Shown piece after piece: positions 37,122 through 48,033 of a stretch of DNA of 52,476 bases. The DNA is from Candidatus Woesearchaeota archaeon (GTDB lineage: Archaea; Nanobdellota; Nanobdellia; SCGC-AAA011-G17; JACPIM01), in the NCBI GenBank assembly GCA_964457785.1, contig CAYWEX010000001.1:1-52476 (forward strand), given 5' to 3'. The translations under genes were made by a program, and so were the position numbers. The notes under the pieces are model-generated. The model saw nothing but the letters and a program-made list of their open reading frames with translations, made no database searches and was not told the DNA's origin. The number at the start of each line of letters is the position of its first letter. Position 1 is the stretch's first letter.

Positions 37122-37220
37122 GCCTCCGTAGCTTAGTAGCTATAGCGGCGGTTTTGTAAATTTTGAATATTCAAAATCCAAATGAACCGCAGGTCAAGGG
37201 TGCAACTCCCTTCGGAGGCT
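37122..37220 (+). tRNA. tRNA-Thr(TGT) with a canonical 37/38 intron (37159-37184)
   Basis: GCCTCCG/CGGAGGC acceptor stem, GCGGT/ACCGC anticodon stem, and a BHB with a TTTG/CAAA helix. Confidence 0.92.
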
Positions 37221-38123: not shown

Positions 38124-38195
38124 GGGCCTGTGGTCTATCGGTATGACGAATCCTTGACGTGGATTAGGTAGTCGGTTCAATTCCGGCCAGGCCCA
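38124..38195 (+). tRNA. tRNA-Val(GAC)
   Basis: GGGCCTG/CAGGCCC acceptor stem, AATCC TTGACGT GGATT anticodon arm, GGTTCAA T-loop. Confidence 0.95.
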
Positions 38196-46682: not shown

Positions 46683-47063
46683 ATGGAATTAAAACATCTT
46701 ACTGCCAAAGGAAACGGAGAATCAGACTATGATTATATAAATGATATACTCTTTTTTAAAATTAAAGACAGAGAATATCATAAATCAATAGAATTTGAAG
46801 ATATTATTCTAGACATAGATAAAGAAGGTTTTATTACAGGAATTCAGATTTTTGATGCTTCTAGCATATTTAAATTAAGCAAGGAAGCTGTCAAAGAAAT
46901 AAAGAAATGGTTTTTTGAAATTAAAGTTGAAAACAATATAATAAATATACAGCTTATGTTTAAAACAATGATCAGAAATAAAATAATTGAGAGAGGACAA
47001 AATATAGTCAGAAAATCCCCCTCATTATTAAAAGATTCAGAAATATCTGCAGAAATTGATTAA
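46683..47063 (+). CDS. DUF2283-like protein (putative antitoxin)
   Basis: DYDYINDILF...IILDIDKEGFITGIQIFDAS. Confidence 0.8.
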   Translation: MELKHLTAKGNGESDYDYINDILFFKIKDREYHKSIEFEDIILDIDKEGFITGIQIFDASSIFKLSKEAVKEIKKWFFEIKVENNIINIQLMFKTMIRNKIIERGQNIVRKSPSLLKDSEISAEID

Positions 47064-47188
47064 TTCAAATTCTGATGTATTTGGATATACTATTTTTGTT
47101 TATTTGTAATTGATGAAATTATTTTTGTATTTTTATCTATGCAAATTTTAGTCATAATTATAGTATGCTCTAAAAATATTTAAAGTAT

Positions 47189-47329
47189 TGCAGGGGCAAG
47201 GATTTGAACCTTGGTAGGCACTGAGCCACTAGGTTTCTTCTATCGAATTAACCTAAGCAAAGCCGATTCCTTAGCATAGCCGATTACTAGGATAATCTCT
47301 AGCCCGTTTGACCGCTCCGGCACCCCTGC
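47189..47329 (-). tRNA. tRNA-Leu, most likely TAG, with two introns (30/31: 47259-47298; 37/38: 47235-47251)
   Basis: GCAGGGG/CCCCTGC acceptor stem, long variable arm, GGTTCAAAT T-loop. Splicing restores CTAGG CTTAGGA CCTAG; junctions are BHB-like. Confidence 0.85.
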
Positions 47330-47439
47330 ATAGAGAAAATAAGAATTTAACAGATTTAAAAGTTTAACCATTTAAACCTTTTTGAAAAAAAGCTTTACCA
47401 AAAACTAATTTAAGAAAAGTTTAATCAAAAACTGTATAA

Positions 47440-47652
47440 TTATTTTTGTCTTTTTGATCTTGTTGCCTTGTTTAATCTTTTGAAAAAGGATTTTTTCTGC
47501 CAAGAATAAGATCTTATTTTTGCTGAATTACCATAACCACAATTGCTACAAATAGACTTTTTCTTATGATAGGAAGATCTGCCGCATCTCCTACATCTAT
47601 AATGCTGCTTGTGCAGTCCTTTTTTTCCTTTAGAAGGAGTTCCTTTTGTCAT
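47440..47652 (-). CDS. rpl37e: 50S ribosomal protein L37e
   Basis: [10 protein letters not shown]...CRRCG...CSNCGYG. Confidence 0.96.
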
Positions 47653-47665
47653 TTTAGCTCAACAT

Positions 47666-47890
47666 TTATTCAGGAGTAATTAGAATTATTGTGTCTCCTC
47701 GTAAAAAAGCAGTCCCTATTTTTCTTTTTATTTGTCCATCAACACGTTCTTCAACATCTTCTAGAACAATATTAATATGAATGTCAAAAGCCTTTAACTT
47801 GCCTATTAACTGCTTGCCGTTTTTTAATTCAACCATTATTTTTTTACCACGAGCGTTGTTTAAAGCGTCTAATGGTCTATCTGATTCCAT
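47666..47890 (-). CDS. Sm-like archaeal protein (Lsm/SmAP1)
   Basis: RPLDAL, GKLKAFDIHINIVL and LRGDTI motifs; conserved position upstream of rpl37e. Confidence 0.95.
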   Translation of the reverse strand: MESDRPLDALNNARGKKIMVELKNGKQLIGKLKAFDIHINIVLEDVEERVDGQIKRKIGTAFLRGDTIILITPE

Positions 47891-48033
47891 GTAAATAACC
47901 CCCAAGGATTTTATAATTTTGGTTGAAACATAGTATATAAAGCTTGTGTTTATTGATCTTTTAAGGCTTAAATTAACAAGTTAATAAGTTAGAAAAAGTT
48001 TATAAAGATATTTTTATCTGATCAAATTAAAAA

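Follow-up and report, generated by a model that had tools for sequence, protein, structure and literature searches.

The question raised by a leucine tRNA gene of a Candidatus Woesearchaeota archaeon is whether one archaeal transcript can be spliced in two mutually exclusive ways to give two isoacceptors. The gene carries two adjacent mini-exons with different leucine anticodons, AAG and TAG, each preceded by a 3' splice strand of its own, and we refer to it as the double gene. It lies on contig CAYWEX010000001.1 of assembly GCA_964457785.1 (here G000), and the window is the whole stretch of that contig that was analyzed, positions 1 to 52,476. A sequence-only reading had offered two explanations for the arrangement: either one gene yields two isoacceptors, or it is a snapshot of intron growth by exon duplication. 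We put the probability that this gene encodes both tRNA-Leu(AAG) and tRNA-Leu(UAG), and that both are made, at about one half.

A leucine tRNA gene with two anticodon mini-exons

The G000 assembly comprises 802 kb in 19 contigs, with a G+C content of 29% and an estimated completeness of 86%; the eight runs listed for window positions 46700-47800 are all of groundwater DNA, from three studies, with no RNA run among them. The double gene is a class II tRNA-Leu gene of 141 nt on the minus strand (47189-47329), extending from G1 to the discriminator A73. Its 7-bp acceptor arms were recovered by a repeat finder as the inverted repeat 47323-47329/47190-47196, its T arm is normal, and in its tRNA body it is identical or nearly so to two other leucine tRNA genes of G000, Leu(CAA) and Leu(TAA). 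Genes for an Sm-like (LSM) protein and for ribosomal protein L37e lie upstream on the same strand. The motif TTTAAAT (47354-47360, minus strand), 25-31 nt upstream of G1, is likely to be an archaeal TATA box, judging by its position and sequence.

A script parse divided the minus strand of the gene into pieces of 31 (5' exon), 23, 7 (AAG unit), 10, 7 (TAG unit), 17 and 46 nt (3' exon). The 5' exon (47299-47329), which supplies tRNA positions 1-30, ends in six bases that form the 5' strand of the first splice motif, the central-helix GGCT at 47301-47304 and then the bulge AG. The proximal first intron of 23 nt (47276-47298) contains the bulge base A, the hairpin GATTAT/GTAATC, a GGCT at 47278-47281 and the bulge AT. 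It is followed by the proximal mini-exon GCTAAGG (47269-47275), running from G31 to G37 with the anticodon AAG; by a 10-nt spacer, AATCGGCTTT (47259-47268), which is the distal 3' splice strand (ATC, GGCT and the bulge TT); and by the distal mini-exon GCTTAGG (47252-47258) with the anticodon TAG, both mini-exons being defined by the parse and by in silico splicing. The last intron of 17 nt (47235-47251) ends in the central-helix strand GAAG (47237-47240) and the bulge AA, and provides a 3' splice site at 37/38 that is common to both routes. The 3' exon (47189-47234) consists of A38, the stem strand CCTAG, the long variable arm, the T arm, the acceptor strand and A73; the Leu(CAA) gene (contig C10) has exactly this sequence as its 3' part.

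The sequence-only reading had described a 17-nt tandem with 15 of 17 positions identical, introns at 30/31 and 37/38, two 3' splice strands for the first intron, and the removal of either 40 + 17 or 23 + 34 nt, and this anatomy is right. The repeat finder places the adjacent copies at 47252-47268 and 47269-47285, 88% identical (15/17) and 17 nt apart from start to start, the minus-strand letters are as originally written, and the piece sizes make the arithmetic of both routes correct. In each copy a 3' splice strand is joined to an anticodon mini-exon of 7 nt, and on the minus strand AAG precedes TAG. A tandem of this type is present in one of the 24 G000 tRNA genes tested. It is neither a chance repeat nor an assembly artefact, because the same arrangement occurs in independent assemblies (G001, G002, G003, G008 and G140) and at 31 metagenome loci. 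All of the pieces lie within one 141-nt gene, between a single acceptor pair, and not at the separate loci joined in trans that characterize split tRNAs.

In silico removal of either intron pair produced a regular class II tRNA, called by ARAGORN as tRNA-Leu(tag) or tRNA-Leu(aag), so that both spliced products read as leucine tRNAs as had been claimed. The unspliced gene elicited no ARAGORN call, ARAGORN in default mode made no call at 47189-47329, and Rfam gave no match there at either the gathering or the E-value threshold. The intron mode of ARAGORN mis-called the double gene as Thr(agt) with a 64-nt intron. Standard tRNA finders thus miss or mis-call double genes, and the tRNA sets of genomes that contain them will be under-annotated.

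The enzymes for bulge-helix-bulge (BHB) splicing are both encoded by G000: there is one EndA open reading frame of 220 amino acids on contig C13, with N-terminal and catalytic domains, and an RtcB ligase match on contig C3 at an E-value of 9.5e-164. Many G000 tRNA genes have one to three introns, in an inventory of about 31 genes that is incomplete. A search with the 5' and 3' body of the double gene found three leucine loci, namely the double gene itself, Leu(CAA) on contig C10, which has one intron in the D loop and one of 12 nt at 37/38, and Leu(TAA) at C3:45516-45675, with a D-loop intron, a 14-nt 30/31 intron, a 7-nt mini-exon and a 17-nt 37/38 intron. A loop-and-stem scan recovered the anticodons TAA, CAA, AAG and TAG, and no credible Leu(GAG) or Leu(CAG) in this 86% complete assembly. 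The absence of a Leu(GAG) gene, which had been suggested as the circumstance that would make an AAG product useful for CTT and CTC codons, therefore holds for both searches. Among the CTN codons of 269 long open reading frames, CTT is the commonest at 11.9 per 1000 codons, followed by CTA (7.7), CTG (4.8) and CTC (1.4).

Several other features of G000 tRNA genes were encountered. The last intron of the Leu(TAA) gene contains an exact GCTTAGG, conserved in G001 and G003, which could pair with the exon sequence CTTAAG; the gene was considered as a second double gene and rejected, because the flanks of this GCTTAGG leave splice strands no room. An intron-less tRNA at C4:53886-53961 (56 bits) has the loop TTAACGC, with a Val-like AAC anticodon, and the discriminator G; it has no counterpart in 15 genomes of the family, and was therefore rejected as support for the use of A34. 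The window also encodes, on the plus strand, a tRNA-Thr(TGT) with a 26-nt intron (37122-37220) and an intron-less tRNA-Val(GAC) (38124-38195). A 174-nt tRNA gene at C12:13766-13939, read as Gly(GCC), is interrupted by two long introns, and an exact tandem repeat of 12 nt lies in one of them. A palindromic element of about 30 nt (AAACTTTT..AAAAGTTTAATCAAAA, or a GCTT variant) occurs at 44 places in the 802-kb genome, including 47417-47430 (plus strand) of the window; one copy lies between the L37e gene and the double gene, and at least eight are inside tRNA-gene introns, mostly D-loop introns. The element may represent a small mobile sequence or serve as a signal for transcription.

The double gene and leucine tRNAs with A34 among relatives

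The double arrangement is found in the three other species of the genus (G001, G002 and G003), in another genus of the family (G008) and in a member of another family (G140, whose assembly is 78% complete). The AAG and TAG anticodons are present only inside the double gene in the six species genomes G000-G003, G008 and G140; the sister genera represented by G012, G013 and G009 encode AAG and TAG as separate genes. Open reading frames beside the TAG gene of G012 match G000 47467-47655 and 47672-47902, which adjoin the double gene; by position, the double gene therefore corresponds to the TAG gene. G132 was considered as a genome with a double gene in addition to separate AAG and TAG genes, and rejected: its double gene is probably mis-binned, because it sits on a 3.4-kb contig and has a body unlike that of the genome's own leucine tRNA genes.

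A metagenome scan yielded the 31 double-gene loci mentioned above. In all, 38 loci were parsed, 36 with a full central region and two (L088 and L094) cut by contig ends; the 36 central regions collapse to 24 distinct variants in three groups. The metagenome scan required both units to be intact, so that their invariance in this set is circular and cannot be used to gauge unit conservation. A scan of species genomes in which the first intron was left free gave 13 loci: six double genes with GCTAAGG intact and seven single-unit genes with a simple hairpin intron, with no decayed AAG unit among the 13. With the window added, GCTAAGG is intact in seven of the seven double genes of this unbiased set, which come from two clades. 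The orthologous loci have thus kept both units. The proposed snapshot of intron growth does not fit an arrangement conserved across two genera of the family and another family, and in 24 variants.

Seven of the double genes from metagenomes (L086, L095, L098, L103, L105, L107 and L109) have a further insertion in the T loop, directly after GGTTCGAA or GGTTCAAA, that appears to be an intron. In the single-unit Leu(TAG) genes L015/L116 (G004) and L075 (G012), the 37/38 intron starts with ACCATG or ACCAT, the 3' anticodon-stem strand of the Leu(AAG) genes of the family; this hints at past recombination or duplication between Leu(TAG) and Leu(AAG) genes. G219 has CTAAGG in its first intron, with neither a proximal splice strand nor G31. 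The leucine tRNA genes found in G006, a 94% complete genome, are TAA, TAG and CAA only, so TAG alone may suffice for the CTN codons there.

ANN anticodons have been stated to be missing from archaea (PMC8007984, PMC6000648), and the sequence-only reading had likewise considered A34 tRNAs essentially absent from archaea and TAG the default product. This is not so in the present lineage. A pattern combining the Leu(AAG) loop with the leucine variable arm matched 64 of 240 genomes of the order, mostly as stand-alone genes, and the reversed-pattern control matched none of the 240. The anticodon stem is fully complementary in 28 of 30 fetched AAG loci, and many of the loci have no intron in the anticodon arm. 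The corresponding GAG pattern matched three of the 240 genomes, at least one of them spuriously, none of the 107 high-quality genomes and none of the 16 in the family. Both counts are lower bounds, as the AAG gene of G014, with a 51-nt intron, was missed. Stand-alone Leu(AAG) genes are thus present in relatives, and G040 and G012 each encode AAG and TAG separately. With A34 tRNA-Leu common in the lineage, a supposed absence of A34 tRNAs gives no reason to treat TAG as the default. A similar situation is described for ARMAN-4 and ARMAN-5, where Leu(AAG) is present and the G34 version absent (PMC3239211); as in the order studied here, A34 takes the place of G34 for CTY codons. The AAG gene described in ARMAN-4 and -5 is stand-alone, in contrast to the single gene that holds both AAG and TAG here. 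The cytidine-deaminase families PF00383 and PF14437 were not found in any of six genomes (G000, G001, G002, G003, G008 and G040), whereas controls were found in 12 of 14 reference genomes, and the A34 of Leu(AAG) is therefore probably unmodified.

Alternative partners of the shared splice strand

Splice motifs were judged by the 3-4-3 BHB rule (PMC3239211). In the window, the first-intron motif is complete with either partner: all four central pairs form, two as G-U, and the outer helix measures 6 bp with the proximal and 4 bp with the distal strand. Across the 24 variants the shared 5' strand matches the proximal strand at 7.00 of 7 scored pairs in every case; its match to the distal strand averages 6.58 of 7, with 7/7 in 14 variants and 6/7 in 10. 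Cuts are placed after the second base of the bulge, a placement supported by the register control, in which shifted registers gave 0.3-4.7 of 7 first-intron pairs.

At the 37/38 site only relaxed motifs are formed. In the window the central helix has three of four pairs with the TAG unit and two of four with the AAG unit, and the outer helix has 2 bp in register for TAG and 5 bp, one base out of register, for AAG. It is therefore true of the window, as had been suggested, that the second BHB is the poorer one on the AAG route. The last-intron strand varies. GAAG (nine variants, including the window) and TAAG (six variants) fit the TAG unit better, whereas GTAG (six variants) and TTAG (three variants) fit the AAG unit better.

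Covariation was scored on a MAFFT alignment of the 24 variants. The structure of the AAG route is 92.1% paired, with four pairs changed on both sides (slid controls, 19-49%), and that of the TAG route is 86.0% paired, with two pairs changed on both sides (slid controls, 29-47%); these compensatory changes represent only two or three independent events, and kinship of the sequences inflates such counts. In the proximal hairpin the compensatory changes are at alignment pairs 12:26 and 14:24. Position 12 belongs to the shared strand, is A in 14 variants and G in the other 10, and covaries with its partner in the proximal strand as well as with that in the distal strand. Between the spacer that follows the AAG unit and the middle of the last intron there is a further helix, A2, which encloses the TAG unit; in the window it pairs the ATCGG of the spacer (47259-47268) with TCGAT at 47242-47246. 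A2 uses bases of the distal splice strand, shares its 3' partner with the outer helix of the TAG route, and is conserved, with AU/CG and GC/AU exchanges. Such a helix is required by an AAG-route intron and would be without a role if the TAG product alone were made.

For most group I and group II variants the two folds of the first step are closely balanced, differing by no more than about 3 kcal/mol: forcing the proximal versus the distal motif gives differences of -2.8 to +3.7 kcal/mol, with -0.2 for the window. In group III the proximal fold is favored by 4.7-10.1 kcal/mol. In minimum-energy folds of the second-step intermediates, the AAG central helix forms in eight of 24 variants, all from group III and not including the window, and the TAG central helix forms in nine of 24, mostly from group I. 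In the window, the AAG route is therefore weakest at its second motif. Folding of the whole precursor to minimum energy (z-score, -2.27) did not give a BHB fold.

One isoacceptor or two

We present a model in which competing BHB folds select one of two mutually exclusive 7-nt exons. The primary transcript would fold in two ways around the shared 5' splice strand (GGCT, the bulge AGA with its cut after AG, then GAT...). In the first state the shared strand would pair with the proximal strand (GTAATC-GGCT-AT, cut before the G), ATCGG of the spacer would pair with TCGAT in the middle of the last intron so that the TAG unit is looped out, and removal of 23 + 34 nt would give tRNA-Leu(AAG). In the second state it would pair with the distal strand (ATC-GGCT-TT, again cut before the G), and removal of 40 + 17 nt would give tRNA-Leu(UAG). 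The single EndA of the genome would make the cuts and RtcB would join the ends. The AAG product would read the common CTT codon, probably with an unmodified A34, and the UAG product would read CTA and CTG. The double gene would have supplanted a pair of separate genes, one for AAG and one for TAG, in this genus and one sister genus, and the balance between the two folds would set the ratio of AAG to UAG. We give this mechanism, including the replacement of two genes by one, the same even odds as the production of both tRNAs. Production of two tRNAs is favored because AAG is a real isoacceptor in the order, and because of the complementary gene distribution, the synteny, the covariation, helix A2 and the usage of CTT. 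Of what the sequence-only reading had proposed as one gene with two isoacceptors, the supporting circumstances have stood up, with no Leu(GAG) gene found, both units kept in orthologues and stand-alone AAG genes in relatives; that both cuts are made in cells is what we infer from them.

That only tRNA-Leu(UAG) is made, the readings to this effect being taken together, strikes us as possible but somewhat improbable. The strongest of them, which we regard as unlikely, holds that the 17-nt duplication left the AAG unit and its splice strand behind as intron sequence, tolerated or rarely used, with U34 reading all four CTN codons. It would accommodate the better fit of the window's last-intron strand to the TAG unit (3/4 versus 2/4 pairs), the canonical register of the TAG-route outer helix, the failure to find an AAG gene in G006 and perhaps also in G004 and G010, the intronic CTAAGG that G219 keeps without splice signals, and the small number of compensatory events. 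However, a leftover would not be expected to keep a perfect proximal motif in 24 of 24 variants, with compensatory changes, and selection should act against a decoy whose stability equals or exceeds that of the real site. All seven unbiased genes also have an intact 7-nt unit, with no decayed copy among 13 loci, helix A2 would have no role, and the separate AAG gene has been lost exactly in the lineages that have the double gene.

A stepwise order of events, again with tRNA-Leu(UAG) as the only product, is decidedly improbable. The 23-nt hairpin intron would be removed first, the AAG unit and spacer (17 nt) second, as another short intron at 30/31, and the last intron later. Short introns without an outer helix do exist in G000, such as the 12-nt intron of Leu(CAA), and the distal GGCT could still pair with the exon GGCT after the first cut. 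Yet the distal ATC (ACC in group III) covaries with bases that would be gone after the first step (pair 12:43), and the invariance of the AAG unit and helix A2 would be left unexplained.

That the proximal CTAAG owes its conservation to structural pairing with the exon CTTAG, and not to a role as an exon, is very improbable. The two pentamers are reverse complements and so fully complementary, G219 has CTAAGG without splice signals, and a similar complementarity of exon and intron exists in the Leu(TAA) gene. However, a helix between the two units would cross the motif of the distal first intron as a pseudoknot, and so would be no help to the TAG route; pairing between the units was rejected as the cause of conservation for this reason. 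The AAG unit pairs elsewhere in constrained folds, and the conserved G31 and G37, the proximal GGCT-AT strand and the compensated hairpin would not be explained. A gene with AAG as its only or main product and the TAG unit as part of a long 37/38 intron is scarcely credible, although group III favors the proximal fold by about 5-10 kcal/mol and has a last-intron strand (GTAG/TTAG) that fits the AAG unit better, because CTA and CTG (12.5 codons per 1000) would be left without another reader in these genomes and because conservation extends to the distal splice strand and to the outer helix of the TAG route, which is in register.

Insect Dscam pre-mRNA has one shared docking strand that pairs with one of several alternative strands, and a single exon is kept. 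These mutually exclusive exons resemble the double gene in the use of a shared strand with alternative partners, but they are products of the spliceosome, in protein-coding genes of eukaryotes. Within the archaea, including the DPANN, multiple introns, mini-exons and relaxed splice motifs are known (PMC3239211, PMC4033280, PMC5829648). The multi-intron pre-tRNAs described from the Thermoproteales and ARMAN-2 resemble the double gene in having introns at the non-canonical 30/31 site and at 37/38, with strict or relaxed 3-4-3 motifs, and ARMAN-2, like the archaeon studied here, is a DPANN host with many disrupted tRNA genes (PMC3239211, PMC4033280, PMC5829648). As those pre-tRNAs are described, they contain very short internal exons and are cut by EndA at BHB motifs, and each exon is used once, giving one product, whereas the double gene has the 7-nt exon and its 3' splice strand twice, with different anticodons.

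In function, the closest parallel is provided by split and tri-split tRNAs, among which synonymous tRNAs share pieces (PMC4033280). In Nanoarchaeum equitans and Caldivirga maquilingensis, as described there, shared pieces are combined with alternative anticodon pieces to give synonymous tRNAs, as proposed here; two 5' halves have one 3' Glu half in common, and the exchange of pieces is "like a jigsaw puzzle" (PMC4033280). Those pieces are described as separate genes joined in trans through leader pairing, whereas the double gene would act in cis, through competing folds of one 141-nt transcript. Alternative cis-splicing of a tRNA gene into two isoacceptors was not reported in the full-text literature searched, which lies largely outside the subscription journals.

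Should both tRNAs be made, the double gene would provide the first known example of a tRNA gene that yields two isoacceptors by alternative cis-splicing, and a clear example of alternative splicing carried out by the protein-only machinery of archaea. It would bear on the origin of tRNA introns and mini-exons, through duplication of an exon together with its splice strand, on the economy of tRNA genes in reduced genomes, and on the evolution of split tRNAs with shared pieces. Against the textbook statement that ANN anticodons are absent from archaea, A34 tRNA-Leu is the normal reader of CTY codons across many genomes of this order, with no recognizable A34 deaminase, and the A34 tRNA-Leu of the order is natural material for studying decoding by unmodified A34.
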